A DNA stretch of 64,000 bases from an uncultured virus (IMG/VR IMGVR_UViG_3300021164_000915) (IMGVR_UViG_3300021164_000915), one strand, 5' to 3'; positions 2,749 to 59,326 are shown, counted from the stretch's first letter. Notes: a model not told the origin generated them from the sequence alone. Numbers and translations: made by a program.

Positions 2749-3120
2749 ATGGCAATAGTAAATAAAAACTTCAAGGTTAAAAATGGCCTTAACGTAGCAG
2801 GACCTGCAACATTTGATGCAGCAGTAAATGTAGACAACTTAGTCTTAAATTCAACCCCCCTTGCCTTCGACTCATCAACTGGAAGATTAAAGATCCAGAT
2901 TAATGGTGCTTGGAAGGAAATTGCCCTCTTAACAGATGCGGCAGAAGATGCAGGCGCTTTAACATTTATGGATATTGGATTGGCCATGGACTATAACGGT
3001 CAGCCAATCTATACAGTTTATGCAAACGGAGTAAATACAACAGCCACAAAATTTGCGGATGGTGGAGATTACTCAACAGAGATCTACAGCATGACCTTTG
3101 ATTCTGGAACAATTAACTAA
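2749..3120 (+). CDS. Hypothetical virion protein
   Basis: Shares the N-terminus MAIVNKNF[RK]VKNGL with 1077-2684. Confidence 0.6.
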   Translation: MAIVNKNFKVKNGLNVAGPATFDAAVNVDNLVLNSTPLAFDSSTGRLKIQINGAWKEIALLTDAAEDAGALTFMDIGLAMDYNGQPIYTVYANGVNTTATKFADGGDYSTEIYSMTFDSGTIN

Positions 3121-3181
3121 TTGTTTTGGAATTATTCTAGTGCTATAATTACAAAATAAGTCTAAATAAGGGGTGGCAAAT

Positions 3182-5731
3182 ATGTCAACAGTAAGAATTC
3201 AAGTAAGAAGAGGCACAGCTTCACAGTGGACCTCAGTAAATCCAATTTTGGCAGCAGGAGAAATGGGTGTTGAGTCAGACTCAAACCTATTTAAATTCGG
3301 TAACGGGTCTTCTACATGGACTGCCCTTTCATATGCAAACAATTCAGATGTAGCGATTGGTGAAATATCCCAAGACGCAGTAAATCAGGCCCTCGCAGTA
3401 GGCGCAGGACTTACAAAGACATATAACGATGGTGCTAATACAATAACCGTCGCAGTAGATTCATCATACTTTAATGAGCTTGCACAGGATGCCGTCAACA
3501 CAGCAATTCAGGCTGGCGTAGGAATCACAAGAGTATACAACGATGATTCAAACACAATAACACTTACAGCAGACGATTCAGTCTTAGCAACAAAAGCATA
3601 TGTTGCTTCTCAGAACACTCAACTTGTCAATACAGCAGATTCAACTTATCTAGCCGCTGCAGACCTTGGAGTTGCAAATGGAGTAGCTTCATTAAACTCT
3701 TCTGGAAAAGTTCCTACAACTCAGCTAGACCTCACATCCCCAGTTAAAACTATTGTTGCAAGTACTTTAGTTGGTGGAAGAGGTTCAAATGTAACACATG
3801 ATGCTCAAGCTGGAACACTTACTTTATCTGCACCAATCACAGGTACAGGATCAGTTACAATAGCAAATAATTCTGGAGATAACGGAATGACTGTTGGTCT
3901 GACAGCAATAGTAGATGCAACTACAAAATTAAGAACTCCATTAGTTGAGACAACCGCAGTAAATACTACCACTTTAGACGCTGCAACAGGAACAATTGGA
4001 GCCTTGACTGTTTCAGGTAACCTAACAGTTAATGGAACCTCTACAACAGTAAATTCTACAAACGTTTCAATTGATGATCCAATGATTTATCTTGGTGACG
4101 GAAATCAGTCTAACGTACTAGACCTAGGTGTAGTTGCAGCATTTAATAATGGAACTTACCAGCATGCAGGACTTGTTCGTGATGCATCAGATGGAACCTG
4201 GAAGCTTTTCTCTGGAGTAACGGCAGAACCAGGAACAACAGTAGATTTTACTACTTATACAAAAGATGATCTTGAGCTTGGAAACTTGTTTGCAAATGCA
4301 GCACAAATTGGAAATGTAACCAACGCAGAACTACAGCGCCTAGATGGAGTTTCATCTCCAATACAGGCTCAAATTGATGCAAAGATATCAACAGCAAATG
4401 CAGCATCAACATATGCTCCAAAGCTTTCTCCAACACTTAGTGATGTAACATTGACAGGAACAATAACAGTGCCTGCAAGCTCAATAGATGGCGATTCAAT
4501 TCAGCCTTTAACAATTACTAATGGAAAAATTAGTGCAACAGCAGAGATTGCACAAAGCAAGATTGCTGGCTTACCAGCAGCAATTGCTGCAAAAGCAAAC
4601 ATTGAATCACCTCAATTTACAGGTACAGTAGTTCTTCCAAGCACAACATCAATAGGAACAGTAAGTGCTACAGAAATTGGATACCTAGATTCAGTAACAT
4701 CAAACATTCAGTCACAGATTAATGCAGCAGTTTCACAAACAGCCAGCAATTACACAGACCTTAATGGATTTATAAATACAAATAAGGCATCAGCAGATGC
4801 ATCAATTGCATCAATTAACACTGCAAATGGTGTACAGGATACAGCAATTGCTACTAAGGCAACAATTGAGTCCCCAACATTTACAGGCACAGTAACTGTT
4901 CCAACACTAGCAGTAACAGGATCAGCTTCAGGTATTACAAAGACACATGTTGGTTTAGCAAATGTTGATAACACAGCAGATGCAGACAAGCCAGTTTCTG
5001 CAGCAGCACAGACAGCATTAGATGCTAAATTAGCAGTAGCAACTGCTGCATCAACATATGCTCCGATTGCTTCTCCTACATTTACTGGAACAGTATCTGG
5101 TGTAACTAAGGCTCACGTAGGTCTTGCAAATGTTGACAACACATCAGATGCCTCAAAGCCAGTATCTACAGCACAGGCTACAGCAATTGCTACAGCTAAG
5201 TCAGAAGCAATTGCAGATGCAACATCACAAGTAAATGCACTACTAACAGGTGCACCAGCAGCACTAAATACACTTGATGAGCTTGCAGCAGCACTTGGTG
5301 ATGACGCAAACTTTGCATCAACCGTTACAACATCACTTGGAACAAAAGCACCACTTGCTTCACCAACATTTACTGGAACAGTAACAGTCGGAGCAGCAGG
5401 AATTGTATTCTCTGATGGAACTCAGACACGGGCAGGTGTTCCTTCAATAACAACATTTGCAACACCATTTGCAATACCAGGAACACTTGCAGCAGGAGAA
5501 CAAGACAAGTTTGTGCCAGTATCAGGAACAGTACAAATTACTCTTCCTGCAACAGGATATTCAACTGGTCAATCAATTGATTTCTGGCAGCAAACTGGAA
5601 CTGGCGCATCATTTGCAGCAACAAATGGTGTAGTTGGTACCCCTGGATTAAAATTCAGAACAACAAATTCAGTTGTAACAGCACTAAAAATTTCAAGCGG
5701 ATGGTTGGTCTTCGGAGACCTATCAGCGTAA
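3182..5731 (+). CDS. Tail fibre-like protein with Mtd/hyaluronidase-type N-terminal domain
   Basis: IQVRRGTASQWTSVNPILAAGEMGVESD..FKFGNG N-terminus; SPTFTGTV and VGLANVDNT fibre repeats; ATG 3182 preferred over GTG 3173. Confidence 0.75.
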   Translation: MSTVRIQVRRGTASQWTSVNPILAAGEMGVESDSNLFKFGNGSSTWTALSYANNSDVAIGEISQDAVNQALAVGAGLTKTYNDGANTITVAVDSSYFNELAQDAVNTAIQAGVGITRVYNDDSNTITLTADDSVLATKAYVASQNTQLVNTADSTYLAAADLGVANGVASLNSSGKVPTTQLDLTSPVKTIVASTLVGGRGSNVTHDAQAGTLTLSAPITGTGSVTIANNSGDNGMTVGLTAIVDATTKLRTPLVETTAVNTTTLDAATGTIGALTVSGNLTVNGTSTTVNSTNVSIDDPMIYLGDGNQSNVLDLGVVAAFNNGTYQHAGLVRDASDGTWKLFSGVTAEPGTTVDFTTYTKDDLELGNLFANAAQIGNVTNAELQRLDGVSSPIQAQIDAKISTANAASTYAPKLSPTLSDVTLTGTITVPASSIDGDSIQPLTITNGKISATAEIAQSKIAGLPAAIAAKANIESPQFTGTVVLPSTTSIGTVSATEIGYLDSVTSNIQSQINAAVSQTASNYTDLNGFINTNKASADASIASINTANGVQDTAIATKATIESPTFTGTVTVPTLAVTGSASGITKTHVGLANVDNTADADKPVSAAAQTALDAKLAVATAASTYAPIASPTFTGTVSGVTKAHVGLANVDNTSDASKPVSTAQATAIATAKSEAIADATSQVNALLTGAPAALNTLDELAAALGDDANFASTVTTSLGTKAPLASPTFTGTVTVGAAGIVFSDGTQTRAGVPSITTFATPFAIPGTLAAGEQDKFVPVSGTVQITLPATGYSTGQSIDFWQQTGTGASFAATNGVVGTPGLKFRTTNSVVTALKISSGWLVFGDLSA

Positions 5732-5754
5732 TAGGATCAAGGGAGAATATATAA

Positions 5755-7023
5755 ATGTCAAAACAATCAGGTAGAATGAGCCAGTCGTCAAACGACTTCC
5801 TGGCCCCATATGCTCCAACAATTGGTACAGCAACAAATGTTGGCTCAGGTAGAGCATTTAACAATGGTCGTGCAGATGTAACTTTTACTCCAGATGCTAG
5901 AAATGCTGCAGTTTCATTTACTGTCACTTCTTCCCCAGGAAACTTTGTTGGAACTGGAGCATCGTCTCCAGTTTCAGTTACAGGCCTTCAGTCAGGAATT
6001 GCTTATACATTTACTGTAACAGCAACAAATGAATATGGAACTTCAGCAGCGTCAGCTGCGTCAAATTCAGTTACAGCAACTACAAAGCCAGCAACACCAG
6101 CTGCTCCAACTGCAACCGCTCAAACAAATCAAGATGCTGTTAGCTGGACAACTCCTTCTGACGGCGGCTCAGCAATAACTGGATACGTTCTAACATCTTC
6201 AGACGGACCAACATATTCAACTGCTGCAACAAGCTACACTGTACCAGAGACAGCAAATACAGCCCAGACATATAGAATTCAGGCAGTAAATGCAAACGGA
6301 ACTTCAGAATATTCTGCTAACTCTAATTCAGTAACAACATTGGCACCGTTCTTCCCGCCGTTCTTTCCACCAAGCTTCTTCGCCCCACCAGGGTTCTTTG
6401 CCCCACCAGGGTTCTTTGCCCCACCAAGCTTCTTCGCACCACCAGGGTTCTTTGCCCCACCAGGGTTCTTTGCCCCACCAGGGTTCTTTGCCCCACCAAG
6501 CTTCTTTTCACCACCAAGATTCCGTGCTTGTATAGACCAAGACACACTGATATCAGTACTAGATGGGGAAAACATAGTCTACATCCCAGCAAAAGATATT
6601 AAAATTGGTGATATAGTTGCTGGAGTTAAATGGGATGAACTTACATCTGAAATTGATGAAGATCCTTCTGTTTGGTCATCAAAGTCAATAACAGAAATGA
6701 CTGTAGTTCCAACAACAATTACAAATATTATTCCTTCAGTAAAAGACATAACAATGTACTTTAATGGTGACATGTCAAAGAGATTCTCTCTAGAACACAC
6801 AGTGCTTGTAAAGAGAAATGATATCTACATGTTTATCACAACAGGAACAGTTGAAGTAGGAGATATCATCTTACAAAGAGTTGAAAACCAAGGGTTTACT
6901 GAAATACCAGTTGAATCTATAAATACTATTGATGAAACCAGAGACGTCTACCAGCTAGACGCTTCACCAGTAGATGTCTTAATTGCAGGAGACATTGTAG
7001 TACACAACCTAAAGATGTACTAA
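5755..7023 (+). CDS. FN3-like protein with Pro/Phe tandem repeat and C-terminal Hint (intein-like) domain
   Basis: Two FN3-like segments (YTFTVTATNEYG; WTTPSDGGSAITGY..YRIQAVNANG), a PPxFFA repeat, then C-I-D-Q-D-T ... SLEH ... VYQL ... IVVHN. Confidence 0.8.
   Translation: MSKQSGRMSQSSNDFLAPYAPTIGTATNVGSGRAFNNGRADVTFTPDARNAAVSFTVTSSPGNFVGTGASSPVSVTGLQSGIAYTFTVTATNEYGTSAASAASNSVTATTKPATPAAPTATAQTNQDAVSWTTPSDGGSAITGYVLTSSDGPTYSTAATSYTVPETANTAQTYRIQAVNANGTSEYSANSNSVTTLAPFFPPFFPPSFFAPPGFFAPPGFFAPPSFFAPPGFFAPPGFFAPPGFFAPPSFFSPPRFRACIDQDTLISVLDGENIVYIPAKDIKIGDIVAGVKWDELTSEIDEDPSVWSSKSITEMTVVPTTITNIIPSVKDITMYFNGDMSKRFSLEHTVLVKRNDIYMFITTGTVEVGDIILQRVENQGFTEIPVESINTIDETRDVYQLDASPVDVLIAGDIVVHNLKMY
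6367..6510 (+). repeat. 8 x 18-nt coding tandem repeat encoding PP[G/S]FF[A/S]
   Basis: Unit CCACCAGGGTTCTTTGCC and variants, preceded by APFFPPFF and followed by PPRF. Confidence 0.95.
6529..7008 (+). other. Hint / bacterial-intein-like autoprocessing domain (160 aa)
   Basis: Cys1 codon at 6529, block-B-like SLEH, block-F-like VYQL, terminal HN at 7003-7008; +1 residue is Leu; no endonuclease insert. Confidence 0.8.
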
Positions 7024-7730
7024 TGTCTATATATCACCTTCATATACCCAGAACATCTGGAGTATACATAAGGAACAATATGGTCCCAGATCTTATTGCT
7101 AAAGATATCCCGCACTTTGCGTCAAATCGAACACGAATTGACATAGAGCATATTAAAAAAAGCAAGTTTGTTATAGGACACTTTGGGAGAATGCCATTGA
7201 AATATATGGACTCTCCCAAAGTTTTCTGTTTACTCAGAGACCCAGTAGAAAGATATGTTAGCTATTTTAAATATAATACTGGCTATATAACATCAAAAGA
7301 GTCGGCGGAAAACAACTTAGATCAATGGCTATATAAAGAGCAGTCAGAAATACAAGGCAACCTACAGTCTAAATTTTTAACTGGCTCAACAGATGTAAAT
7401 CTTTTTAATAGTTATATAGGAGTAAGCTCAGAATCATATATAGACAATATATGGCACCTAGAAGACTACTCTCTAGACATTGATAAGATTAAAGAATCTA
7501 TAGCAGGTATCAATATATATACAATGGAAAACTATGATAAGTTTAAGTTTGATTTTAACGAAGAAGTTAAAAAACAATTTGGAATAAATGCGTTTAAGTA
7601 CTCAGATAAATCCAACCAGTCCCCATCAGTTAAAGTAGAAATTAACGAATCCCATTTAAAAAGAATTAAAGAGTTAAATGAAGTAGATTGTGAGATATAC
7701 GAATATGTACGAAAGACTGAAAAAAAATAG
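7023..7730 (+). CDS. Sulfotransferase-family-like protein
   Basis: HLHIPRTSG (5'-PSB-like; R in place of the usual K) and LLRDPVERYVSYF (3'-PB-like); TAATG overlap with the upstream gene. Confidence 0.7.
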   Translation: MSIYHLHIPRTSGVYIRNNMVPDLIAKDIPHFASNRTRIDIEHIKKSKFVIGHFGRMPLKYMDSPKVFCLLRDPVERYVSYFKYNTGYITSKESAENNLDQWLYKEQSEIQGNLQSKFLTGSTDVNLFNSYIGVSSESYIDNIWHLEDYSLDIDKIKESIAGINIYTMENYDKFKFDFNEEVKKQFGINAFKYSDKSNQSPSVKVEINESHLKRIKELNEVDCEIYEYVRKTEKK

Positions 7731-8298
7731 CGAGTGGTCTATTTTAAAATTAGGCGATTTTAACATAGACAATATAAAAAAAGAAGTATCCTCTTTTGAG
7801 GAAGAGTGGTATTCCTACACAAAAAGACAGGAAACTTTTTATACCCACAAAGACACAAAAATGTTCCCGATATGCTTAACGGATGAAGCTATCTGGAAAC
7901 CTGGGGATGTGGTAGAAGTAACCCAGCATAATAAGTTTATTAATGATCAGGCAAACATAGAAATAGATATAATTTTTGAAAAGCTTGCTGCTTATTATTC
8001 TGGTAAAATAATAAGATGCGAAGTGGTAAACCTGCCAGCCAATGTAACTATCAGGCCACATGTTGACGGAGGGCCTCTGCTACATTACTCAAGAAGAGTT
8101 CATGTACCAATAATTACAAATAAAGATGTTACATTTACAGTAATGGATAATACTATAAATATGGAACAAGGCGGGTGGTATGAAATTAATAACCAAATGA
8201 AGCATGCAGCTAGCAATAATAGCACAGTAGACAGAGTCCATTTAATTATTGACATCATGCCAGACGATATGTTACACTATAACAAGACAGGAGCGTAA
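7705..8298 (+). CDS. Aspartyl/asparaginyl beta-hydroxylase-like 2OG-Fe(II) dioxygenase
   Basis: IRPHVD..RRVHVPIITN..YEINNQMKH...N...DRVHLIID. Confidence 0.8.
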   Translation: MYERLKKNSEWSILKLGDFNIDNIKKEVSSFEEEWYSYTKRQETFYTHKDTKMFPICLTDEAIWKPGDVVEVTQHNKFINDQANIEIDIIFEKLAAYYSGKIIRCEVVNLPANVTIRPHVDGGPLLHYSRRVHVPIITNKDVTFTVMDNTINMEQGGWYEINNQMKHAASNNSTVDRVHLIIDIMPDDMLHYNKTGA

Positions 8299-8985
8299 AT
8301 GATTACAGATATAAAACCAAACTGGTCATCAAAAGAAATGCTATTTCCAGGACTATGGGTATACAGAAATGTAATGCCACAATCTATAATGGACAGAACA
8401 AAAGATTTCATTGAAGCCAATAATGACTCATACAAATGGGCAGACGCAACAGTAGGATATTCTGAAGCAAAGCTAGACTACAGAAACTGCCAAGATTTTA
8501 AAATTGGAGAAATCAAAAGTCCAAAGAATATAGAAGAATTTGCATTGTCAGAAATATGGGAGTCTGCGTATGCAGCTCAGATCCCATCAGTTGAAGATTA
8601 TTGCGGCAAGTATAATGTTAGAATGAATTACTGGGAAGTTATGAACTTTATTCAATACGGCCCTGGACAACACTTTAAAGAACACGCAGATCATGGTTTT
8701 TCATATAGTGCCACAGTCTCATTAGTAGCATATCCAAATGACGATTATCTTGGCGGAGAATTAACTTTTCCAAAGCTAGATATCTCGATTAAGCCACAAG
8801 CTGGAGATCTTTATATATTCCCTTCTACATATCTGTTTTCTCACGTAGCCGAGCCAGTAACAGAAGGAAGAAAATATTCAATTGTAACAATGCTAGACTA
8901 TAACGATCATGCCCACTGCCAAGAGTTTATGCAGATGAGGGCAGAAAGAGTTGAACGTGAAAAACATAAAGGTATACAAAACTAG
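8299..8985 (+). CDS. 2OG-Fe(II) oxygenase (prolyl-4-hydroxylase-like)
   Basis: YGPGQHFKEHAD..NDDYLGGELTF..IFPS..H..PVTEGRKY. Confidence 0.85.
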   Translation: MITDIKPNWSSKEMLFPGLWVYRNVMPQSIMDRTKDFIEANNDSYKWADATVGYSEAKLDYRNCQDFKIGEIKSPKNIEEFALSEIWESAYAAQIPSVEDYCGKYNVRMNYWEVMNFIQYGPGQHFKEHADHGFSYSATVSLVAYPNDDYLGGELTFPKLDISIKPQAGDLYIFPSTYLFSHVAEPVTEGRKYSIVTMLDYNDHAHCQEFMQMRAERVEREKHKGIQN

Positions 8986-9655
8986 AGAAGGGTACGCTCA
9001 AGTATCCCCATTAAATGCAAAAAGATCTTGGATGGACGAGACCTATGAATCTCACGCATACAAATGCTTTCCAGTTGGATTAACTAATCAATTAGGATGG
9101 GGTATATCTTTTCCTGAAGACATTACTTTTGTTTGGGATGGAATTTCTGACTCTACCCCGAATCATGTTAAAGTTATTTCTGGCGAAAAATATGTTTACA
9201 CAGGTAGAGCAAACGCAACAATTAGTTTTAATACTGGCCTAATGTTTGTAACTGAAAAAAATCAGACACTACTCTCAATGCCAGTCCCAAATCAGTTTAT
9301 AGATGGGGCTGTTCCATTTACAACGCTTATATCGACATCATTTTTTAGGGGAGACCTACCAGTGGCTTGGAGAATAACCAGGCCAAATGTAGAAATAACA
9401 ATAAAAGCAAATACCCCTATCATATCTATAATCCCAATAGATTTGGAAGATATGCAAAATTCAGAAATGTTTCTGTCTCCAATAAATGAAATAAATAAGC
9501 TAGAGTTTTTAGATGAAGCCTACGCAGAAGCAGTAGGGGCTGCAAATGCAGCTGGCAACTGGTCTAATTTTTATAGAGATGCCACAGACCATAAAGGTAA
9601 AAAAATGGGAGAGCATCAAGTAAAGGCAATCAGATTAAAGGGTGGCTCCGAGTAA
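8951..9655 (+). CDS. DUF6065-like protein
   Basis: RSWMD..HAYKCFPVGLTNQLGW motif; paralog at 58622; start may be GTG 8957. Confidence 0.65.
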   Translation: MNVKNIKVYKTREGYAQVSPLNAKRSWMDETYESHAYKCFPVGLTNQLGWGISFPEDITFVWDGISDSTPNHVKVISGEKYVYTGRANATISFNTGLMFVTEKNQTLLSMPVPNQFIDGAVPFTTLISTSFFRGDLPVAWRITRPNVEITIKANTPIISIIPIDLEDMQNSEMFLSPINEINKLEFLDEAYAEAVGAANAAGNWSNFYRDATDHKGKKMGEHQVKAIRLKGGSE

Positions 9656-9695
9656 ATGATTAATGGTAGAATATATATTATAGGGAATAGGTAAA

Positions 9696-10373
9696 ATGAA
9701 ACCAGCAAACGCAGACATGAAATTACACGCTCCAAAATCAATAACCCCTTCTGGATTTTATGGAAATTCTTCTGACAATATAGTAGAGTTAGAAAACTTC
9801 CTGACACCAGAAGAAAGAGAACGACTAATAAATTTTGCTTTAACTAATAAAATATGGGATCACACAGAGACTCATGTTGATGAAGATGGCCTAGTGCTGT
9901 ATGATGCCAATATATGGAAAGATAGAGTTTGCACATACTTTTCTTTAATGGAATCAGACCCAACAATACTTGATTTAATTAATAGTATGATTGCAAGACT
10001 TAAAGTAGAAGTTGATAAGTTTTTTGACGTAGACGCAAAAGAAACAGGCCCAGCAATTGTAAGATGGCCAGTTGGAGCAAGACAAGAACCACACGCAGAT
10101 AAAGAATTCCATACTGGAATTGAAAGAGGAAGGGCTAACGATTTCCCTCACTACGATCTAGCAGGTCTATTTTATTTTAACGATGACTATGAAGGCGGAG
10201 AACTGTATTTCCCACAACACGGTATAGAGTTTAAGCCAAAAGCAGGGGCAGCATATTTTTTCCCTGGAGACATGTATTACACACACGGAGTAAGACCAGT
10301 AAAGTCTGGCAATAGATTTACATCTCCATTTTTTTGGACGATTATGAGACACACAGGAGAAAGACAGCCATGA
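9696..10373 (+). CDS. 2OG-Fe(II) oxygenase
   Basis: RWPVG..QEPHAD..YFNDDYEGGELYF..HGV..V.SGNRFT. Confidence 0.85.
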   Translation: MKPANADMKLHAPKSITPSGFYGNSSDNIVELENFLTPEERERLINFALTNKIWDHTETHVDEDGLVLYDANIWKDRVCTYFSLMESDPTILDLINSMIARLKVEVDKFFDVDAKETGPAIVRWPVGARQEPHADKEFHTGIERGRANDFPHYDLAGLFYFNDDYEGGELYFPQHGIEFKPKAGAAYFFPGDMYYTHGVRPVKSGNRFTSPFFWTIMRHTGERQP

Positions 10374-11194
10374 GCAATTTAGAATATGTAGAATTATATC
10401 CAAGAGTAGACGTTTACAGAAATGTTTTGTCTGATCCGCAGAAGCTTTATGAAACAATGAAAAAGTCTGAGCAGACCTCAGAAGGAAAACATTATTTGAG
10501 ATCGTGGGATCCTTGGGCTCATTTTGGAACTTACTCACAAATAAAAGATCCTGCCGAAACAAAAGATATTGCTGAAGATGCAATGTTTATTGAAGAAAAA
10601 GATTTTGCTCGTCAAGTACAAGAAGCGTACGATCTAGTTTTGAACGATTATATTAAAAGACATGAAATAGAACTTAAGCCAGGATGGCATTTTAGCGGAT
10701 GCTCTTTTTCTAAATACAGAGATCAGATAGATGTCATGAATAACAAAATGACAATGCAATATCACACTGATTTTATTATATCTGAAAGAGATATGCCTGG
10801 TTCAAAATTTCAATTGACCTGTACCATGTACATAAACGATGACTATCAAGGTGGAGACATCGAATTTTTTGTTGATGGTAATTTAGTTAATCATAAGCCG
10901 CAAGCGGGAGACATTCTTGTCTTCCCGTCAGACGCACCATATTTTCATGGAGTAAAGACTATTCATGGTGGAGAAAAGTTCTTTGTTAGAAACTTTGTAA
11001 TGTATCCTTACGACGGACATCCTGACTGGCTTGCAAAGCAAAAGCAAATGGGTGCAGCAAACTGGATGAAAAAAGAATTTAAAAGATTAGAGCACGATAA
11101 TCCTAGAAATATGAGATATCTGCAGGACGGAATTCCAACAGAGTATGATGATCTGATTGGAAATAAAGATGGCCCAGACGAGGCAACACAATGA
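10370..11194 (+). CDS. 2OG-Fe(II) oxygenase
   Basis: MQYHTD..YINDDYQGGDIEF..VFPS..HGV; ATGA overlap start at 10370. Confidence 0.85.
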   Translation: MSNLEYVELYPRVDVYRNVLSDPQKLYETMKKSEQTSEGKHYLRSWDPWAHFGTYSQIKDPAETKDIAEDAMFIEEKDFARQVQEAYDLVLNDYIKRHEIELKPGWHFSGCSFSKYRDQIDVMNNKMTMQYHTDFIISERDMPGSKFQLTCTMYINDDYQGGDIEFFVDGNLVNHKPQAGDILVFPSDAPYFHGVKTIHGGEKFFVRNFVMYPYDGHPDWLAKQKQMGAANWMKKEFKRLEHDNPRNMRYLQDGIPTEYDDLIGNKDGPDEATQ

Positions 11195-11949
11195 AGCTAA
11201 CAAAGTTAACAGAAGACATTTATCTTTATGAAGAGTATATAACAAAAGAAGAGTGCTCATCAGTCATTGGGCTGTTAAATAAGCTTGAGCAAAATGAAGA
11301 AGGCTACTGGAAAGGAATATCTTTCTATGAGTCATCCTCTGCAAGATATCCGTATGATGGGGAGCCTATCTTGCAAGAGTTTAATCTTAGCCCAACTTGG
11401 TTTACTGATTTAAAAAATCGCTTTAGACAATCGGCTGCAGATGTGGCAAATAAATCATTTGAAGATATGTCACAAATTAGCTTCCACGTTCAGAGATGGC
11501 TCCCAGGAGCATTTGCACCCAAGCACTCAGACAATAGCGATCACGAAGGAAATATGGGTGCATTTACAAGAAGTAGATACGCTGGGTTCCTTTATTTAAA
11601 TGACGACTTTGAAGGCGGTACTTTAAAGTTTGATGCAAAGCACGGAGAGATTCCTTTGGAAATTGTTCCAAAAGCTGGTTCATTTTTAATATTCCACGGT
11701 GGCCACAAGAACATGCACGAAGTTACAGTTGTTAAAAAAGCTGCAAGATATACACTTGGATCTTTTTGGGACGACAGAGAAGAATCAGACTACCCAGAAG
11801 ATGTAAGAGCCGCTTGGGCAGCAGAGTTGGCTGGAGTAAGAGAAATGCAAAAGGGCGAGCAAGAAGGATGGAAAGATATAAGAGACAGAGGTCTAAGACT
11901 ATCCCCAGACGGAGCCACAATACCTGCATCAGAAGTAGAGGGAAATTAA
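11191..11949 (+). CDS. 2OG-Fe(II) oxygenase
   Basis: RWLPG..KHSD..YLNDDFEGG..HEV....ARYT. Confidence 0.85.
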   Translation: MKLTKLTEDIYLYEEYITKEECSSVIGLLNKLEQNEEGYWKGISFYESSSARYPYDGEPILQEFNLSPTWFTDLKNRFRQSAADVANKSFEDMSQISFHVQRWLPGAFAPKHSDNSDHEGNMGAFTRSRYAGFLYLNDDFEGGTLKFDAKHGEIPLEIVPKAGSFLIFHGGHKNMHEVTVVKKAARYTLGSFWDDREESDYPEDVRAAWAAELAGVREMQKGEQEGWKDIRDRGLRLSPDGATIPASEVEGN

Positions 11950-12611
11950 TGAGTAGCCAAGACTTCAATCCAGAAGATATGTATCATATGTTTATATTAA
12001 AACAGTTATCGAGCAACATTTGGTATTTTAAAAATGTTATCAGCTATCCAAAAGAATTGCTAGAGTTTATTAATGAAGTCGACCTTGATGAAAGAAGCCA
12101 CGGCGTCATATCTAAATGGAGTCCTTGGATAGCAAGCAACAACCCAGAAGTTGTATACGGCGAAAACAAAAATATAATAACAAAGAATGTTAAAAATAAA
12201 ATTGACAATGGAAGACTAGATCAAAAAATACTATACATTAAGAATAGCCTTGAGATGGCATTTGAGATGTGTCTAAATCAATACCTGTCCAATCACAATC
12301 TAGATCCATCAAAGTATACATTAATGACAGACGAGATTCCAGTAAGAAGATGGACAGGGCCAGGAATGGGACCTCATTGCGATAACTATGACGGAGATAG
12401 CGACCTTGCATTTTCTATGATATCTTATCTAAACTCAGATTATGAGGGTGGGGAAATTGAGTTTCCAAATCACGGCATATCAATAAAACCAGAAGAAGGA
12501 AGCCTTCTTATTTTCCCAAGCCACGAACCATACTTACATAAAGTTAATGATGTAAGATCTGGAGATAGATACACTTCACATCTGTCTGTGTATAATAGCA
12601 AGGTGGTATAA
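11949..12611 (+). CDS. 2OG-Fe(II) oxygenase
   Basis: MGPHCD..YLNSDYEGGEIEF..IFPS..H.V..V.SGDRY; start at TAATG overlap 11949. Confidence 0.85.
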   Translation: MSSQDFNPEDMYHMFILKQLSSNIWYFKNVISYPKELLEFINEVDLDERSHGVISKWSPWIASNNPEVVYGENKNIITKNVKNKIDNGRLDQKILYIKNSLEMAFEMCLNQYLSNHNLDPSKYTLMTDEIPVRRWTGPGMGPHCDNYDGDSDLAFSMISYLNSDYEGGEIEFPNHGISIKPEEGSLLIFPSHEPYLHKVNDVRSGDRYTSHLSVYNSKVV

Positions 12612-12618
12612 TTAAAAA

Positions 12619-13749
12619 ATGGCAACTACAGGCGTTAATGGATGGCGTTTCCCAACCTACACAGACTCACCAGATGTACCTAGAGATTTAGGTGCCCTGG
12701 GTACAGACATTGCTGCATTTATTGCAGCTAACCCTGGACCACAAGGACCAGCTGGTCCATCAAACGTAATAACAGTTGCTGCGACAAATACAATTAATCC
12801 TGGACAAAGTGCCTCAGTAACAATTAGCGGAACAGCCCCATCTCAATCATTAACATTTAATATCCCAAGAGGCGTAGACGGTGTTCTTGGAGGCCCAGGA
12901 CCAGCAAACGTATTAAGTGTTGGAACCGTAGCAGCAGGTAATGCTGGTACACAGCCAATTGTAACAATAACTGGAACCGCTCCTTCACAAACAATTAATT
13001 TTACGATTCCTCGTGGAGACACGGGGCTAACTGGCGAAACAGGATTACCAGGGGCTACTGGACCTAAAGGTGATGCGGCAGCAACGATAACAGTTTCTCC
13101 AACAGTTACAACGTCAGCTGCAGGAACTAATGCGGTAGTAACAAATTCTGGAACATCAAGCGATGTTGTTTTAAACTTTACAATACCCCGTGGTGCTGAC
13201 GGTGCAGCGGGAGCAACTGGACCAGCAGGACCAGCTGGAACAAATGCAAACATAGATCCTATTGCTACAAGAATTTCATTAAATTACGCAGCGACAGATA
13301 TTTCCCCAGTAGGAGTAAATTCAAACTGGTTTCCTTTAACCACAAATCTTTATTCGTTAGGTCTAATGGGCCCATTGAATCCACCTGGAGACCAGCGCAC
13401 AACAAGAGGCTGGAAGAACATATATTTAAATTCCGCAGCCACAGTGATATCTGATGCACGAACAAAAGAAAACATAATAACGTCAGACCTCGGTTTAGAT
13501 TTTATAAACAATCTTCATCCAGTTAAGTATAATAAGATAGAGGGAAATAGAACGCATTATGGCTTAATCGCACAAGAAGTTAAATCTGTATTAGATGCTG
13601 CTGGCGTTGCAGACTTTGGCGGATGGGTAATATCGGATGTCGCTGACCCAGAGGGCCAGCAAGCATTAAGATATGAAGAATTTATTTCGCCATTAATTAA
13701 AGCGGTACAAGAACTTACAGCGAGAGTAAAAGCAATAGAAGAGGCGTAA
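12619..13749 (+). CDS. Collagen-like fibre protein with C-terminal intramolecular chaperone (peptidase S74-like)
   Basis: Gly-X-Y runs, three F[TN]IPRG repeats, SDARTKENI..GLIAQEV..LIKAVQEL chaperone motif. Confidence 0.8.
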   Translation: MATTGVNGWRFPTYTDSPDVPRDLGALGTDIAAFIAANPGPQGPAGPSNVITVAATNTINPGQSASVTISGTAPSQSLTFNIPRGVDGVLGGPGPANVLSVGTVAAGNAGTQPIVTITGTAPSQTINFTIPRGDTGLTGETGLPGATGPKGDAAATITVSPTVTTSAAGTNAVVTNSGTSSDVVLNFTIPRGADGAAGATGPAGPAGTNANIDPIATRISLNYAATDISPVGVNSNWFPLTTNLYSLGLMGPLNPPGDQRTTRGWKNIYLNSAATVISDARTKENIITSDLGLDFINNLHPVKYNKIEGNRTHYGLIAQEVKSVLDAAGVADFGGWVISDVADPEGQQALRYEEFISPLIKAVQELTARVKAIEEA

Positions 13750-13752
13750 GAC

Positions 13753-15576
13753 ATGTCATACAAATATACAGTCTTACAAGATAAGCCAACGTCATTTTAC
13801 CTTTTGGATGAAGTAAGATCAGGCACCGTAGGTTCATATGACAGCATGAGATCAATATTTGCAACATACGCAGATCTTAGAGACAATGGAGTTTCCTACT
13901 CAGCTTTGAGCGGTTTGCCAATGTATGATTACTCTGGCAATGGGCTTAACGGATACGCTATAAACTCTTCTAATTTAGAGTTGATGCCATTAATTTCAGG
14001 AGGAGTCAGAGGAACAACAATACTTTCTGACACTGTATTAAATTTTAATTCAGAAGGAATAGCAACAAAATACTATGCGGATGATTCCTTTACAATAGAG
14101 GCCTGGTGCCTAATATCCGACTCAAGCTCTCTAATTAAAATTGTTGGAGACAGCAGAACAGTTGGTAGTCAGGTTCAAAACATAGGTCTGTTTCATAAAA
14201 ATAGCAACATTATGTTTATAGTCGGAGACTACATAGCAGAGTATCCAGTAACAACCACAGAGTCTTTACATATAGCTGGATGTTTCGATGGGGAATCTAT
14301 ATCTTTATATGTTAATGGAGAAATGGTTGATAAAGTTTCTGTAGATAAATATAGATTTACCAATACCTCTGTTTTTTTTCAAACAGGACCATCTCCAGAA
14401 TTAATGATTATTGATTGTGTAGCATTTTATAAGTTTAGCCTGCCAGCACAAAATATCAAAAAACATTATGAAGAAGGCATTAATGAATTAAGTATCTCTC
14501 AAATTGTAAACACAAGCGGTGGACGCCTATTTAGTATGAATGTCAACCCAATAAAACCTAAATTTCAATACTCATACCCTTTATCTAAATCTTGGGATTC
14601 TGTAATTGGAGACGGGATTTCAATATCGGATGACAAGTCTTATATATATATTAAAGAAACAGAAGTTGCAGGCACCGCATCATATTCTTTTACTGATTAT
14701 TTCAATGTTCCAAAATTCTTAGGTATAGACACATCTCAGATATACTGGTCTGAAGATGTAAAAGGCATTTTGGTTGAAGTAAGTAAAGATAATGAGTCAT
14801 GGCTAACTTGTACAAATGGATCAGCACTTCCATATTTCAATAAAAATCAAAATCAAACATCTGATTTTCTTTACATAAGGGTTACCCTAAGCTCCTCAGA
14901 CACTAGAAAATATTTGCCTGTATTAAGATACATAAACATCATGTTCTTTAAATCTAAAACACTGTACAGCGATAATACTGGATCCTATATAAATTCAGAT
15001 TATGACTACTCCTTACCAGAGTACAATAGCAGAACTCTTTCTTATAATAAAAATAATGGATTGAAAATGTATAATGGCCACGGATTTAAAATTAATGCTG
15101 CCCCACCCACACGCTCAGTAGAAATGATATTTACTCCAGCCCCAGGGCAAAATGTCCTTGTTTCTGCCCCATCAAAAATATACGAGTGGTCTCAGTCTGG
15201 GGCAATAACAAAGTCTGGCGTATCCTCCATATATGTTAATGGAATAGACCGAACCTTAGAAACAAATGTCTGGGCTTTTCTGTCGTATAACGTCCCCCAT
15301 CACATAGTTATTAATTTTTCCTCTGAGGCAACAGGACTTATGTTTAATCAAAATCAGGCAGACACCAAGTCAGGACTAGGGTCTATGTATAACAACTTGG
15401 CCCTATACCCAAATCAATTAAATGAGGCTACGGCTGACCTACACTATTTGATGTACACTGGAAATATAATCAATACCGTGTCAGATTCTTTTGTCAGGGT
15501 TTTAGAGTCCAGCTCAGGTAATAACAGCACCCCGTTTGTTATTACATCTATCGAGCCGCAGTCAATAATTGTTTAA
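13753..15576 (+). CDS. LamG/concanavalin-A-like virion protein
   Basis: FTIEAW..HIAGCFDGESISLYVNG..IDCVAFY pattern. Confidence 0.65.
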   Translation: MSYKYTVLQDKPTSFYLLDEVRSGTVGSYDSMRSIFATYADLRDNGVSYSALSGLPMYDYSGNGLNGYAINSSNLELMPLISGGVRGTTILSDTVLNFNSEGIATKYYADDSFTIEAWCLISDSSSLIKIVGDSRTVGSQVQNIGLFHKNSNIMFIVGDYIAEYPVTTTESLHIAGCFDGESISLYVNGEMVDKVSVDKYRFTNTSVFFQTGPSPELMIIDCVAFYKFSLPAQNIKKHYEEGINELSISQIVNTSGGRLFSMNVNPIKPKFQYSYPLSKSWDSVIGDGISISDDKSYIYIKETEVAGTASYSFTDYFNVPKFLGIDTSQIYWSEDVKGILVEVSKDNESWLTCTNGSALPYFNKNQNQTSDFLYIRVTLSSSDTRKYLPVLRYINIMFFKSKTLYSDNTGSYINSDYDYSLPEYNSRTLSYNKNNGLKMYNGHGFKINAAPPTRSVEMIFTPAPGQNVLVSAPSKIYEWSQSGAITKSGVSSIYVNGIDRTLETNVWAFLSYNVPHHIVINFSSEATGLMFNQNQADTKSGLGSMYNNLALYPNQLNEATADLHYLMYTGNIINTVSDSFVRVLESSSGNNSTPFVITSIEPQSIIV

Positions 15577-57312: not shown

Positions 57313-57490
57313 TGAATTTCTTAAAAAAGAAGAGCCGAAGCAAATCAATTCTACATTCGAAGACCTTCCAGGAATAAAGCCATGCTCTAAGTGTGATGTT
57401 GATGTAGATGGTGGGTTGTGGGATCCCGAAAATTTAATAATGAAGTGGACGTGCCCAGAAGGTCACGAAACAATACATAGGGTTGGATAA
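57299..57490 (+). CDS. Small zinc-binding protein
   Basis: CSKC...CPEGH. Confidence 0.6.
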   Translation: MPNLNEFLKKEEPKQINSTFEDLPGIKPCSKCDVDVDGGLWDPENLIMKWTCPEGHETIHRVG

Positions 57491-57491
57491 T

Positions 57492-58319
57492 ATGAAATAC
57501 GCAGACGTACAGAAGATACAGGTTGCACCTCAAATAGTTGTCTATAGAAATATATTTAAATTTAATCAAGAGATGATTGACCTGCTTGACAAAGACAATG
57601 CTGACTCTATTCTAGACCCTTGGAGAGATTGGTATGATCAGGGAGAGCGAAGAGGCATACTCTTTAATAAATTTAATGATATATCTGAATCTGATACTAA
57701 TGTGGCAAAAAAAGAAAAAGAATATCTAAAAGAAATTTATGACATAACGGACTTTATTAATAACGATTACTTTAATGAATTTAAAAACAATGGCACTTGG
57801 CCCGAATTCATTCTTGACTGGGATAAACTAAAGTCAATAGAAGATGAAATCTATATTGATTATTTTAAGTATGAACATGAAAAGGAAAAAAGATTTAACC
57901 GACCAGCAGAAAAGCTTCTGATGGATTATCATATTGATGAGCTTCCAATACCAAATGAAATTAAATTTAGAAGGCATGTAGCAACAATTAATTTTTATTT
58001 AAATAACACTTACGACGGCGGCGAAATTTGTGTGTACGATGATGTATCTAAGAAAAGCTATAAGTATAAGCCAATGCCAGGAGATGCAGTTATAATGCCG
58101 TCCACAGAGCCATTTTATCATGGAGTAAAACAATACTTTAATGCTAATAGATATTTTGCAAGAACATTTTTAGACTATGTATCAGACAAGAATATATCCT
58201 GGGAAAGCAAATACATCGTAGAGCCTGATGCTGTGATGACAGAATCAGAATATGTTGACAACGATCTTCAGATAATAAAGATATCTACTAACGAGATTAC
58301 AGTAGAGAACGGTTCTTAG
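57492..58319 (+). CDS. 2OG-Fe(II) oxygenase
   Basis: MDYHID..FYLNNTYDGGEI..PS..YHGV....RYF; start 57483 or 57492. Confidence 0.8.
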   Translation: MKYADVQKIQVAPQIVVYRNIFKFNQEMIDLLDKDNADSILDPWRDWYDQGERRGILFNKFNDISESDTNVAKKEKEYLKEIYDITDFINNDYFNEFKNNGTWPEFILDWDKLKSIEDEIYIDYFKYEHEKEKRFNRPAEKLLMDYHIDELPIPNEIKFRRHVATINFYLNNTYDGGEICVYDDVSKKSYKYKPMPGDAVIMPSTEPFYHGVKQYFNANRYFARTFLDYVSDKNISWESKYIVEPDAVMTESEYVDNDLQIIKISTNEITVENGS

Positions 58320-58320
58320 T

Positions 58321-58635
58321 ATGTCGGAAAGATCAGAGATAAAAAGAGATGGCGCAAAAGGACAAAAAAATTCTGGGCGTGGGGACTACCAAAAGGGAGA
58401 TGCTCTATGGCATAACTTTGTGGTAGATTACAAAGAGTACTCAAAATCTATTTCTATATCAAAGGGAATGTGGTCCAAAATATGCACCGACACATTTAAA
58501 GTCAGCAGAGACAAGAGTCCAGTTCTAAAATTAGTATTGGGTTCTGATGGATCTAAAACAAGACTTGCAGTAATAGAGTGGGCAATGCTAGAACAATTAA
58601 TAGAATGTTGGGAGAAAAACAATGTACACGGTTAA
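58321..58635 (+). CDS. PD-(D/E)xK nuclease / resolvase-like protein
   Basis: NSGRG..KGDA....VVDYK motif. Confidence 0.6.
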   Translation: MSERSEIKRDGAKGQKNSGRGDYQKGDALWHNFVVDYKEYSKSISISKGMWSKICTDTFKVSRDKSPVLKLVLGSDGSKTRLAVIEWAMLEQLIECWEKNNVHG

Positions 58636-59326
58636 TGCATACAGAGACAACCACAGAGACCTGTCAGCAAAAATAAGACAATTGCCTCCAAAGAGAGACT
58701 GGATGCACTCAGTTACATACAACTGTACTCCAATAATGGCAGCAAACTCTCTTGGGTATGGAATTTATTTTGACCAAGACATTTCATTTGTCTGGGACGG
58801 CGATAGAAAGAACCCAGCCACAGCAATACTTGGAGGAGATCATATATGGTCTGGTAGAGGGGAAGGAACCGTAAGCTTTAATACTAATCTAATATTTAGA
58901 ACTGACCCAGATGTAAGCATACTTACCATGCCAGTACCAAATCAATTTATTGAAGGTGCAGAAGTTATAACAACCGTTTTATCATCATCTATATTTACAG
59001 GATCATTTCCAATTGTATGGAAACTTCATGAACCAAACAGAGAGTATTTTGTAAAGGCTGGAACGGATGTTGCCTGTATACTTCCAGTTTCAATTGCACA
59101 ATTTCAAGACTCAAACATCAATGTTTTAAATGAGATCTACCCATCAGATAAAAGAATTCAAGACACGCAAGGATACCTAGATGAAATTCAAAGAGCAGTT
59201 TCAGCGGATGAGCCAAGGCTAAAGATGTACAAAAAAGCTATAGACCATAAAGGAAACAAGATAGGAAAACATGAGGTTGATAATCTAAAAATGAAGGTAA
59301 CAGAATTTGAGGGTAATTTAAAATGA
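58622..59326 (+). CDS. DUF6065-like protein (paralog of 8951-9655)
   Basis: RDWM..YNCTP..ANSLG, DISFVWDG, MPVPNQFI shared with the first copy. Confidence 0.7.
   Translation: MYTVNAYRDNHRDLSAKIRQLPPKRDWMHSVTYNCTPIMAANSLGYGIYFDQDISFVWDGDRKNPATAILGGDHIWSGRGEGTVSFNTNLIFRTDPDVSILTMPVPNQFIEGAEVITTVLSSSIFTGSFPIVWKLHEPNREYFVKAGTDVACILPVSIAQFQDSNINVLNEIYPSDKRIQDTQGYLDEIQRAVSADEPRLKMYKKAIDHKGNKIGKHEVDNLKMKVTEFEGNLK

Follow-up and report, generated by a model that had tools for sequence, protein, structure and literature searches.

The window, by which we mean the whole 64,000-nucleotide stretch analysed here, comes from an uncultured freshwater (lake) actinobacterial phage. A block in its fibre region holds nine open reading frames, all on the plus strand, in the order REP (the putative substrate), sulfotransferase, AspH, og0, DUF6065, og1, og3, og2 and og5. 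ORF and Pfam annotation bears out the layout proposed in an earlier sequence-only reading, namely a repeat and Hint gene followed by eight enzyme-like genes. Successive junctions measure −1, −23, 0, −35, +40, −4, −4 and −1 nt, the first being a TAATG overlap of REP and the sulfotransferase at 7021-7025. Hence, the genes mostly overlap or abut, with one 40-nt gap (9656-9695), as had been claimed. Tail-fibre and capsid genes surround the block. On its 5' side lies a fibre protein with an Mtd_N domain (3173..5731, plus strand; PF18454, E=1.7e-12), which precedes the repeat gene in relatives as well. On its 3' side, 7 nt after the end of og5, a collagen-like fibre with an S74 chaperone domain begins (12619..13749, plus strand), which has its own upstream TGGTATAAT motif (12604-12612) and is a rival substrate. 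Contigs of two other studies matched 6477-8668 with one difference and 3100-13800 without an indel. INPHARED gave no match to REP and none to DUF6065.

REP (5755..7023, plus strand) is a protein of 422 aa comprising two FN3 domains (Pfam fn3 twice, E=2.8e-10), a Pro/Phe repeat, a Hint domain and a four-residue tail, and it is likely a virion part. The repeat region (6343..6528, plus strand; 62 aa) is built from the unit FFAPP[GS] and contains 21 Pro, 21 Phe and no acidic residue. With a score of 223 (period 18, 8.3 copies), it also ranks first among the tandem arrays of the window. Relatives of REP were collected from viral contigs, where the best 80 of 186 were kept.

The Hint domain (6529..7008, plus strand) resembles A-type BIL domains and has Cys1, block-B SxxH, block-F Asp144 and His159-Asn160. 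It scores below the Pfam cut-off (21.1 bits against 35.8). The fold is nevertheless assigned as Hint, as the closest matches of the structural model (pLDDT 93) are Hedgehog and BIL/intein structures (E=2.8e-6). The four-residue tail (7009..7020, plus strand; x-K-x-aromatic) lacks a +1 nucleophile, the window having Leu at +1. Cys1, His159, Asn160 and Lys162 of the tail are unchanged in 33/33 sulfotransferase-linked Hints. In the same set, the block-B residue is His in six, as in the window, Gln in 22 and Glu in five. A canonical class 1 intein was rejected because of the +1 Leu, the four-residue flank and the occurrence as an optional C-terminal module, as opposed to an insertion in a conserved host protein.

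The PAPS-type sulfotransferase (7023..7730, plus strand; phrog_3347) matches Sulfotransfer_2 (PF03567) with E=1.7e-4 and 22.2 bits against a cut-off of 22, and a relative reaches E=1.7e-7. Its PDB match is a heparan sulfate 6-O-sulfotransferase (E=4.9e-5). The sequences HxPRTxG and RxPxxRxxS, which we take to be the 5'-PSB and 3'-PB motifs, are unchanged in 33/33 aligned sulfotransferases, with Arg replacing the usual Lys. The AspH/beta-hydroxylase-type dioxygenase (7708..8298, plus strand; start ATG 7708 or GTG 7690) matches Asp_Arg_Hydrox (PF05118, E=4e-11) and keeps HxD...H...R in 7/7 sequences. L-proline cis-4-hydroxylase is its sole PDB sequence match (E=8.6e-7).

Five further dioxygenases, all on the plus strand, belong to the 2OG-FeII_Oxy_3 family (PF13640; above the Pfam cut-off in 5/5, E=5e-13 to 8e-9). 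They are the P4H-type core enzyme og0 (8299..8985; H129-D131-H182, Lys192), the core enzyme og1 (9696..10373; H133-D135-H197, R207), og3 (10370..11194; H132-D134-H193, K203), og2 (11191..11949; H112-D114-H176, R186) and og5 (11949..12611; H143-D145-H197, R207). The iron triad and the basic 2OG-binding residue are complete in each of them and unchanged in 19/19 og0 rows. The six 2OG-Fe(II) dioxygenases reported earlier are therefore present with HxD...H...R/K kept in all, the count being refined to one AspH-type and five PF13640-type enzymes. Solved structures are only distantly similar (E 1e-7 to 0.1); for og0, og2 and AspH, the nearest among them are proline hydroxylases. The best PDB match of og0 is a bacterial prolyl 4-hydroxylase (E=2.6e-7), and the sole match of og2 is prolyl 3-hydroxylase 1 (E=1.5e-4). 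With og3, peptidyl-proline hydroxylase gives E=0.1 at best. For og1 and og5, PKHD-type hydroxylases rank first among oxygenases, the matches of og5 being weak. DNA-base dioxygenases were rejected because the Pfam search of the window enzymes gave no TET/JBP match above noise (best Tet_JBP E=0.029, 14 bits against a cut-off of 34.9) and listed no AlkB family. The window also has two further dioxygenase-like genes and a DUF6065 gene, remote from any repeat.

The DUF6065 core gene (8951..9655, plus strand; Pfam E=7e-30) has the fold of the trimeric dUTPase superfamily. In Foldseek and structural comparison, its model (pLDDT 90) reached Z 10.8 with rmsd 5.4 over 121 aligned residues. All 23 rows with Z of at least 5.8 are dUTPases, dCTP deaminases or viral proteins, the latter presumably derived from these enzymes; the next row has Z 3.7. 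The likeness to the dUTPase/dCTP deaminase superfamily covers residues of about 1-180 at 8-17% identity, whereas an extra C-terminal region is particular to DUF6065. DUF6065 has an ISTSF-type sequence, without Asp, where motif III would have the catalytic Asp, and the main clade of the family has Ser there; motif and register are presumed rather than derived by structural alignment. By this presumed position, a catalytic trimeric dUTPase was rejected. Unlike dUTPases, homologues are fused to dioxygenases: among 18 long homologues scanned, eight are fused to a PF13640 domain and one to a sulfotransferase. DUF6065 probably partners the oxygenases without being hydrolytic itself.

The sequence-only reading had also placed a promoter-like motif in the 40-nt gap. 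This is the TGGTAGAAT motif (9664..9672, plus strand), 32 nt 5' of og1. The sigma-70 scan listed no site in the gap, and TGNTAKAAT is not enriched in the window (11 copies against 9.0 ± 3.2 by chance), which speaks against the motif. What supports it is position, as 7/10 plus-strand copies, including that at 9664, sit 15-39 nt 5' of a start codon, and recurrence in relatives, where it occurs 5' of the S74 fibre gene in 81/81 and 5' of og1 in 41/118 distinct cases. Another copy of this extended −10-like motif (3141..3149, plus strand) lies 32 nt 5' of the Mtd-type fibre gene and probably starts a unit running through DUF6065.

The proposed co-occurrence of repeat gene and enzymes proved strong in both directions. 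og0 follows REP in 75/81 loci, and the remaining six stop at REP. Among the best 80 og0 loci, a Pro/Phe-repeat gene lies upstream in 66 (counted by eye), and in the remaining 14, no more than 1.4 kb of upstream sequence is available. The composition of the repeat covaries with the enzyme set, too. Among 95 distinct REPs, of which 94 are informative (85 diproline, 9 non-diproline) and which are not a random sample because the scans were partly anchored on locus genes (REP, og0, sulfotransferase and Hint), the core of og0, DUF6065 and og1 accompanies 85/85 diproline and 0/9 non-diproline repeats. In held-out loci found via the upstream Mtd gene, the figures are 12/12 and 0/3. On the FN3 tree, with 7 changes, the link holds in 6/6 independent pairs (p=0.031), the only ones on which it rests. 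At the motif level, an additional oxygenase, og4, is present in 21/22 loci with F-P-F and in 0/63 without it (held-out 5/5 and 0/7), which on the tree amounts to 3/4 pairs and is not significant (p=0.25). A rule linking FFA to og3 failed on the held-out set. One complete genome shares the window's pre-portal gene at 100% identity and has (PFGFT)n as its repeat, with another array. In 5/5 non-diproline records (three at least 94% complete), no orthologue of og1 or DUF6065 was found. An og0/og4-like paralogue does lie elsewhere in one complete genome of the non-diproline kind; it scores 188 bits against mostly 300-400 for orthologues. Diproline repeats of relatives have a PF11397 polypeptide GlcNAc-transferase beside them (E=1e-15 to 1e-42), a family which we take to be tied to Skp1/GT60 enzymes.

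As repeat and array adjoin, block inheritance can mimic such covariation. Repeat gene and enzymes could be inherited together as a single recombining block within a hypervariable island, with no functional link, as the adjacency, the few independent swaps on the FN3 tree and a Hint-sulfotransferase pair resembling a single cassette would suggest. We consider this highly improbable. Genes between the repeat and og0 are often exchanged, and AspH has been exchanged by itself (51% identity to its window counterpart, next to 89-96% for Hint, sulfotransferase and og0), yet the 94 + 15 rows contain no mismatched pair of repeat and core. Moreover, in one of the five non-diproline records, the alternative array stays with its repeat genes at a distance of about 30 kb.

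The sulfotransferase follows the Hint. It comes after a Hint in 27/27 cases, with AspH accompanying it in 24/27 loci, and 23/23 Hints ending in HNxKx[FY] have it. Its distances correlate with those of the Hint (rho 0.53) and not with those of FN3 (0.12) or og0 (0.14). On the Hint tree, those linked to a sulfotransferase fall into what is essentially a single clade, with 3 changes, so that the link may reflect a cassette moved whole. Some distant sulfotransferase and AspH pairs occur without an adjacent Hint, and in four fragments with such pairs (47-70% complete) a Hint was sought and absent from 4/4. Complex prediction weakly suggests that the Hint might bind the sulfotransferase: it scored 0.44 against 0.01 for the best control (partner pLDDT at least 86, runs sharing at least 8% of contacts), in a range, 0.60 or under, where 18/157 solved complexes reached the mark in calibration and where both of the mismatches that passed (2 of 215) fell. 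Sulfation of the repeat as a second pathway step is not supported, because the sulfotransferase follows one Hint subfamily and not the repeat type (diproline 22/85, non-diproline 5/9, p=0.11). Of the earlier proposal that the enzymes hydroxylate and then sulfate the repeat, the covariation retains the repeat as likeliest substrate of the P4H-type enzymes, and the sulfation step is left unsupported.

The same proposal had the Hint release a RiPP-like peptide, and the precursor-plus-tailoring layout, the translational coupling and the variable Cys-rich tails that Hint-less relatives carry instead would fit a hydroxylated and sulfated precursor freed in this way. This is very unlikely. Since the Hint comes after the repeat in REP, on its C-terminal side, a cut at Cys1 detaches the Hint while the repeat remains joined to the FN3 domains; furthermore, 39/95 distinct relatives are Hint-less, the sulfotransferase is missing at 63/85 diproline loci, and Pfam annotation of the block revealed no leader peptidase or transporter. 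Assignment to the RiPP biosynthetic clusters was rejected, since REP is a 422-aa FN3 protein and not a short precursor, with the Hint on the wrong side.

The oxygenases might modify other proteins, such as the S74 fibre or other virion or host proteins, with REP a mere neighbour. The S74 fibre has Gly-X-Pro triplets, the classic P4H substrate, and closes 36/60 closed core-bearing arrays; these genomes also hold extra dioxygenases elsewhere. We regard this as unlikely, since enzyme content tracks repeat chemistry and, when the array-closing gene is scored, 24/60 closed core arrays have no S74 fibre next and one genome has the fibre without the core. It is quite improbable, too, that the array serves to produce or alter a nucleotide or small molecule, be it in auxiliary metabolism, as a secondary metabolite or in base modification. 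DUF6065 does have a nucleotide-enzyme fold, and G-x-x-D-x-D occurs in 75/88 sequences of the related family of sibling arrays, some of which contain an SDR and end at ribonucleotide reductase; the AspH-type enzyme is nearest to a free-proline hydroxylase; and og0 matches cyanophage 2OG oxygenases, whose arrays are read as secondary-metabolite genes in the excerpted text of PMC2938197. The Ser of the main DUF6065 clade and the lack of TET/JBP or AlkB matches above noise for the window enzymes argue against it. The fibre-gene setting with an upstream motif common to structural genes, and the sibling polypeptide GlcNAc-transferases with motif-level covariation, are unexpected for metabolic genes.

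Around the observed gene anatomy, folds, intact catalytic residues and covariation, we infer, with a probability of roughly 0.6, a two-module phage locus that tailors a virion appendage by proline hydroxylation and has a swappable self-processing cap. In the first module, the FN3-FN3 protein would bear a greasy Pro/Phe polymer, whose prolines would be hydroxylated in sequence-specific contexts by og0 and og1, usually with og2, og3 and og5, and the dUTPase-fold DUF6065 would serve as non-hydrolytic partner. The second module would be the swappable C-terminal cap, here the Hint, predicted to cleave at Cys1 and Asn160 and possibly to ligate its own four-residue tail to the repeat. The sulfotransferase, usually with the AspH-type hydroxylase, most likely acts on the cap or is recruited by it. 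As each change of repeat goes with a change of enzyme set, the viral dioxygenases probably decorate the phage's own fibre tip, which may serve its solubility, adhesion or shielding. A counterpoint is that five or more enzymes face only two prolines per repeat unit.

No description of the phage-type system was found in the published literature. Its hydroxylate-then-sulfate logic was already predicted computationally for bacterial operons that also encode the substrate, a low-complexity or tail-collar protein (Iyer et al. 2010, PMC2938197). As far as the excerpted text of that source goes, those operons resemble the phage locus in that an AspH-type beta-hydroxylase neighbours a sulfotransferase, together with a surface-type protein of low complexity. 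In contrast, the phage locus lies in a fibre region, presents a Pro/Phe polymer on FN3 domains, adds five P4H-type enzymes, DUF6065 and a Hint cap, has no PAPS synthetase in the block, and its sulfotransferase tracks the Hint. The cyanophage arrays (Syn9), proposed in the same excerpt as secondary-metabolite genes, are similar in their tandem diverse 2OG-Fe(II) dioxygenases (PMC2938197). og0 is a distant relative, resembling cyanophage 2OG oxygenases in 303 records, with 25-30% identity among the 20 matches listed. Their halogenase and JmjC gene are absent here, and the adjacent repeat covaries with the array.

Chloroviruses all encode a P4H, and hydroxyproline was not detected in virions according to the excerpted part of PMC7019647, which counts against our preferred reading. 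The PBCV-1 prolyl 4-hydroxylase is a single enzyme with a eukaryotic host, and that part describes no adjacent repeat gene or Hint. With A-type BIL and Hedgehog domains, the phage Hint shares the fold, Cys1, the terminal His-Asn, the missing +1 nucleophile and a hypervariable host protein, as far as these are covered in the excerpts of PMC4031507 and PMC7765530, two reviews that disagree on ligation by A-type BILs. It differs in its four-residue C-flank with an invariant Lys, its link to a sulfotransferase and a block-B His that is mostly Gln or Glu in the subfamily. Finally, hydroxyproline glycosylation of Skp1 in protists, as excerpted from PMC8724618, parallels the sibling loci in which a PF11397 GlcNAc-transferase stands beside P4H-type enzymes. 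The window has a sulfotransferase instead, and the putative substrate is a repeat, whereas in Skp1 it is one proline of a folded protein.

REP, the putative substrate protein (5755..7023, + strand), consists of two FN3 domains, a Pro/Phe repeat FFAPP[GS] (6343..6528), and a C-terminal Hint domain (6529..7008). The array behind it on the same strand (7023..12611) encodes a sulfotransferase, an AspH-type oxygenase, og0, DUF6065, og1, og3, og2, and og5, where the og numbers denote PF13640 oxygenase families. The sequence-only reading holds for all nine ORFs and how they overlap, for the repeat and both FN3 domains, and for the enzyme families assigned. One dioxygenase is of the AspH type and five are of the PF13640 type, with iron and 2OG ligands intact in all six. 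We consider it fairly probable (about 0.6) that a virion appendage has its repeat prolines hydroxylated and bears an exchangeable cap, and that the Hint form of this cap brings its own sulfotransferase and hydroxylase; each chemical step is what we infer.

Of 81 loci anchored on REP, 75 continue with og0 and six are cut off at REP. With og0 as anchor, a Pro/Phe-repeat gene lay upstream in 66 of the best 80 loci (of 503 found); in the remaining 14, upstream sequence extends for no more than 1.4 kb. A scan anchored on the neutral pre-portal gene gave close relatives with a different array in the same slot, where the repeat is (PFGFT)n. Pooling yielded 228 REP rows, 95 of them distinct and 94 informative (L119, with 2.3 kb downstream, was dropped). 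The core og0 + DUF6065 + og1 was present with 85/85 diproline repeats (units with Pro-Pro) and with 0/9 others, seven of which have a family of PF13759-like oxygenases in its place. In the FN3 phylogeny (two rows with short N-termini left out), 6/6 independent pairs agree on the repeat-core link (p = 0.031). A held-out set of 15 new rows, from a scan anchored on the Mtd fibre gene upstream of REP, had the core in 12/12 diproline and 0/3 non-diproline rows. Left out of this set were duplicates, a locus that was uninformative, and 32 rows with at least 90% identity to earlier ones; of 23 new rows, eight were also excluded, as an upstream Mtd paralogue had been picked up in them. The non-diproline class is small (9 + 3 rows), because a scan with a non-diproline REP gave two loci only.

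The co-occurrence and covariation of repeat and enzymes expected by the sequence-only reading are thus borne out, in a sample biased by its anchor genes, where neighbouring genes are co-inherited and a second motif rule failed. This rule, FFA with og3, seemed strong in the exploratory screen (17 families × 102 motifs, 81 rows) and failed in the held-out set. Co-inheritance would suit mere hitch-hiking of the repeat gene with the enzymes, which we regard as most improbable. Whole-record searches of five non-diproline phages gave no og1 or DUF6065 orthologue, and one of the five has an og0/og4-like paralogue elsewhere in the genome. In one non-diproline phage, the alternative array lies ~30 kb from its own repeat genes. 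Within the diproline class, og4, an additional oxygenase in some relatives, accompanies an isolated F-P-F proline (21/22 vs 0/63; held-out 5/5 vs 0/7), a link supported by only 3/4 independent pairs on the tree. The window has neither og4 nor F-P-F.

The alternative array with the (PFGFT)n repeat (L296, 8708 onwards; L270, 1-8172; L448, L455, L460) comprises a Ser1 Hint, a gene without Pfam match, PF13759-like oxygenases, two DUF6065-related proteins keeping G-x-x-D-x-D, and a weak PF11397 glycosyltransferase. L359 and L380 combine YSFTP/YSFVP repeats with a Hint, and their slot holds only a DUF6065 relative; a complete genome with this repeat type has the alternative array elsewhere.

Among the enzymes, og0 matches bacterial prolyl 4-hydroxylase (P4H), with a Lys at the 2OG site common to both. 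The matches of og1 are PKHD-type, P4H, and prolyl 3-hydroxylase 1 (P3H1); P3H1 is also matched by og2 and, at E = 0.1, by og3. og5 is weakly PKHD-type, and the AspH-type enzyme matches L-proline cis-4-hydroxylase. Such distant matches define family membership rather than substrate. PF11397, a polypeptide GlcNAc-transferase, occurs in sibling loci, in one case between REP and og0 and in three fused to DUF6171 directly after a second diproline-Hint fibre gene. Hydroxyl groups of proteins, Skp1 hydroxyproline among them, are the targets of the PF11397 family, and therefore a protein substrate is favoured. The Skp1 hydroxyproline glycosylation pathway is described in PMC8724618. In view of the repeat-core covariation, we judge a protein substrate other than the repeat unlikely. 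The collagen-like S74 fibre downstream is disfavoured as main substrate by the comparison of relatives' loci.

The DUF6065 model (pLDDT 90) has a trimeric dUTPase fold, in which we take a Ser to occupy the position of the catalytic Asp. The profile search gave 1499 representatives, and among 18 long homologues scanned, eight are fused to PF13640, one to a sulfotransferase, and one to DUF6171; similarity to the sibling family in profile comparison is weak (probability 36%, E = 4e-4). We read DUF6065 as a partner of the oxygenases, and it gains a fold and a genomic context here; a literature search reaching few subscription journals found no paper naming it. The modelled fold would leave room for a nucleotide activity, which counts for small-molecule or nucleotide chemistry as the role of the array; as PF11397 favours a protein substrate, we consider such chemistry quite unlikely.

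The replication region, far from any repeat, holds a second PF13640 dioxygenase (57483-58319, E = 3e-9), a second DUF6065 (58622-59326, E = 1e-18), and, without Pfam match, another dioxygenase-like ORF (62404-63027). Cys-rich DUF6171 (165-443) in relatives often directly follows repeat genes and is fused to PF11397 or to DUF6065; it is a candidate accessory of the same tailoring system.

The Hint domain had no match in a sequence search against the PDB. Its model (pLDDT 93) matched Hedgehog autoprocessing, BIL, and intein domains in a fold search, which settles the assignment where the sequence search gave nothing. Cys1, Asp144, His159-Asn160, and a four-residue flank without nucleophile form the A-type BIL pattern. 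In A-type BILs, cleavage dominates and ligation via a free amino group is proposed (PMC4031507); PMC7765530 states that they cannot ligate. The proposed release of the repeat by the Hint is not supported, as cleavage would set free the Hint itself. For the same reason, a RiPP-like free peptide is very improbable.

The Hint cap is optional; in relatives the C-terminus can be a Hint of another type, a Cys-rich tail, or a short tail, and 39/95 distinct REPs have no Hint at all. An R-x-Y terminus occurs in 8/39 Hint-less REPs vs 20/1542 other protein ends (a post hoc comparison of kin that are not independent). The Cys-rich tails of L033, L046, L057, and L063 contain 4-8 cysteines and are probably metal-binding or disulfide knots. 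Many relatives (L016, 875-4303; L022, 1-2424; L305; L360; L454, 3807-6479) encode a second, longer fibre-type protein that shares its terminal repeat and Hint with their REP; this points to one tag being used for several virion proteins.

In 27/27 rows with the sulfotransferase, its gene lies immediately behind a Hint; it is present with 23/23 Hints ending HNxKx[FY] and has AspH alongside in 24/27. Both arrays and repeats of four kinds are found together with it, and a tie to repeat type was rejected (p = 0.11, independent-pairs test null). Of the proposed hydroxylation and subsequent sulfation of the repeat, proline hydroxylation is favoured by the repeat-core covariation; sulfation of the repeat is not supported, the sulfotransferase being independent of repeat type. 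Over 20 loci, with pairs that are not independent, sulfotransferase distances gave 0.53 with the Hint, 0.12 with FN3, 0.14 with og0, and 0.04 with og1, and FN3 distances track og1 across the insert (0.65). Sulfotransferase-linked Hints form one clade (support 85/91, 3 changes), so that Hint and sulfotransferase moved together as one cassette; on the trees, a functional link falls short of significance (p 0.06-0.13). Co-folding of Hint and sulfotransferase scored 0.44 vs 0.01 for the best control (at least 8% of contacts shared, pLDDT at least 86), so that the predicted complex weakly reaches a mark attained at such scores by 18/157 true complexes and 2/215 mismatches.

Against a strict link, distant sulfotransferase + AspH pairs exist without Hint. 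Where a Hint with the end HNxKx[FY] occupies a second locus, a sulfotransferase lay elsewhere in 1/4 fragments, all <40% complete. AspH accompanies 24/26 longer, aromatic tails vs 0/7 three-residue tails (post hoc; kin not independent). Sulfotransferase + AspH pairs in L187 (5317-7265) and L188-L199 belong to different phage layouts and are accompanied by DUF6171 or a relative of DUF6065; for some, a Pro/Phe-repeat gene lies on the opposite strand at a distance of a few kb. In L348 (5227-7639), three genes are inserted between AspH and og4: one is methyltransferase-like and two are on the reverse strand, one of these two with sulfotransferase-like motifs by eye.

A joint, code-like extension is possible and tentative: modular tailoring of the fibre tip by oxygenases that read proline context, with the dUTPase-fold protein as scaffold and the Hint as follower domain. 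Each oxygenase would serve one proline context of the polymer, e.g., og4 the isolated F-P-F proline. The C-terminal Hint would recruit the sulfotransferase (and AspH), then excise itself and ligate the basic-x-aromatic tetrapeptide, recreating the R-x-Y end that some Hint-less relatives encode directly. The resulting virion appendage would be hydroxylated, sulfated or glycosylated, and recombination would swap its chemistry.

In the 40-nt gap of the array, where a promoter-like motif had been noted, a scan found no sigma-70 promoter, and the motif is not over-counted in the window. What stands is its recurrence: TGNTAKAAT is found 15-39 nt before gene starts, including those of the fibre genes flanking the block on both sides. 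Copies upstream of gene starts are at 978, 3141, 9664, 12604, 20109, 42233, 56278, and 61851, and the motif is a probable phage promoter element.

Portal, protease, capsid, and a 4167-aa tape measure mark the window as a portion of a tailed phage's genome. The capsid protein is nearest to Streptomyces phages (55-60% identity; 127/232 matching records), and nearly all runs holding the stretch are freshwater or lake metagenomes; we therefore infer a freshwater actinobacterium as host. The nine DUF6065 matches in GTDB are metagenome-bin contigs from unrelated phyla with the phage gene order seen here; read as mis-binned phage DNA, they are useless for host assignment. INPHARED gave no match to REP or DUF6065, and the NCBIfam search none over any cut-off. 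Positions 6477-8668 recur in two independent DNA studies with a single difference and without an indel. RNA-library contigs contain REP pieces and the Hint-sulfotransferase junction, and as contigs are no proof of transcription.

Aquatic phage genomes commonly encode 2OG-Fe(II) oxygenases, which are usually classed as auxiliary genes with no substrate assigned. This locus gives a candidate substrate, a motif-to-enzyme rule, and natural swaps, and the question is therefore directly testable. It also offers putative new sequence-specific proline hydroxylases and a putative compact self-processing tag. If true, the reading is relevant to host range and to how particles survive in lakes. No description of this phage system turned up in our literature search, which reached few subscription journals. 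In a review of marine phages, 2OG oxygenases figure among putative auxiliary genes (PMC6359870). For bacterial operons, hydroxylation followed by sulfation of collagen-like or tail-collar proteins was predicted, and cyanophage dioxygenase arrays were described with no substrate given (PMC2938197). For chloroviruses, PMC7019647 reports an encoded P4H whose role is unknown and no hydroxyproline detected in the virions. New here are the split into two modules (repeat with oxygenases; Hint cap with sulfotransferase and often AspH), the F-P-F/og4 rule with its held-out check, the DUF6065 dUTPase fold, and the Hint-sulfotransferase pairing. If the reading is true, phages tailor their own surface proteins chemically, as plants and animals do extensins and collagen.
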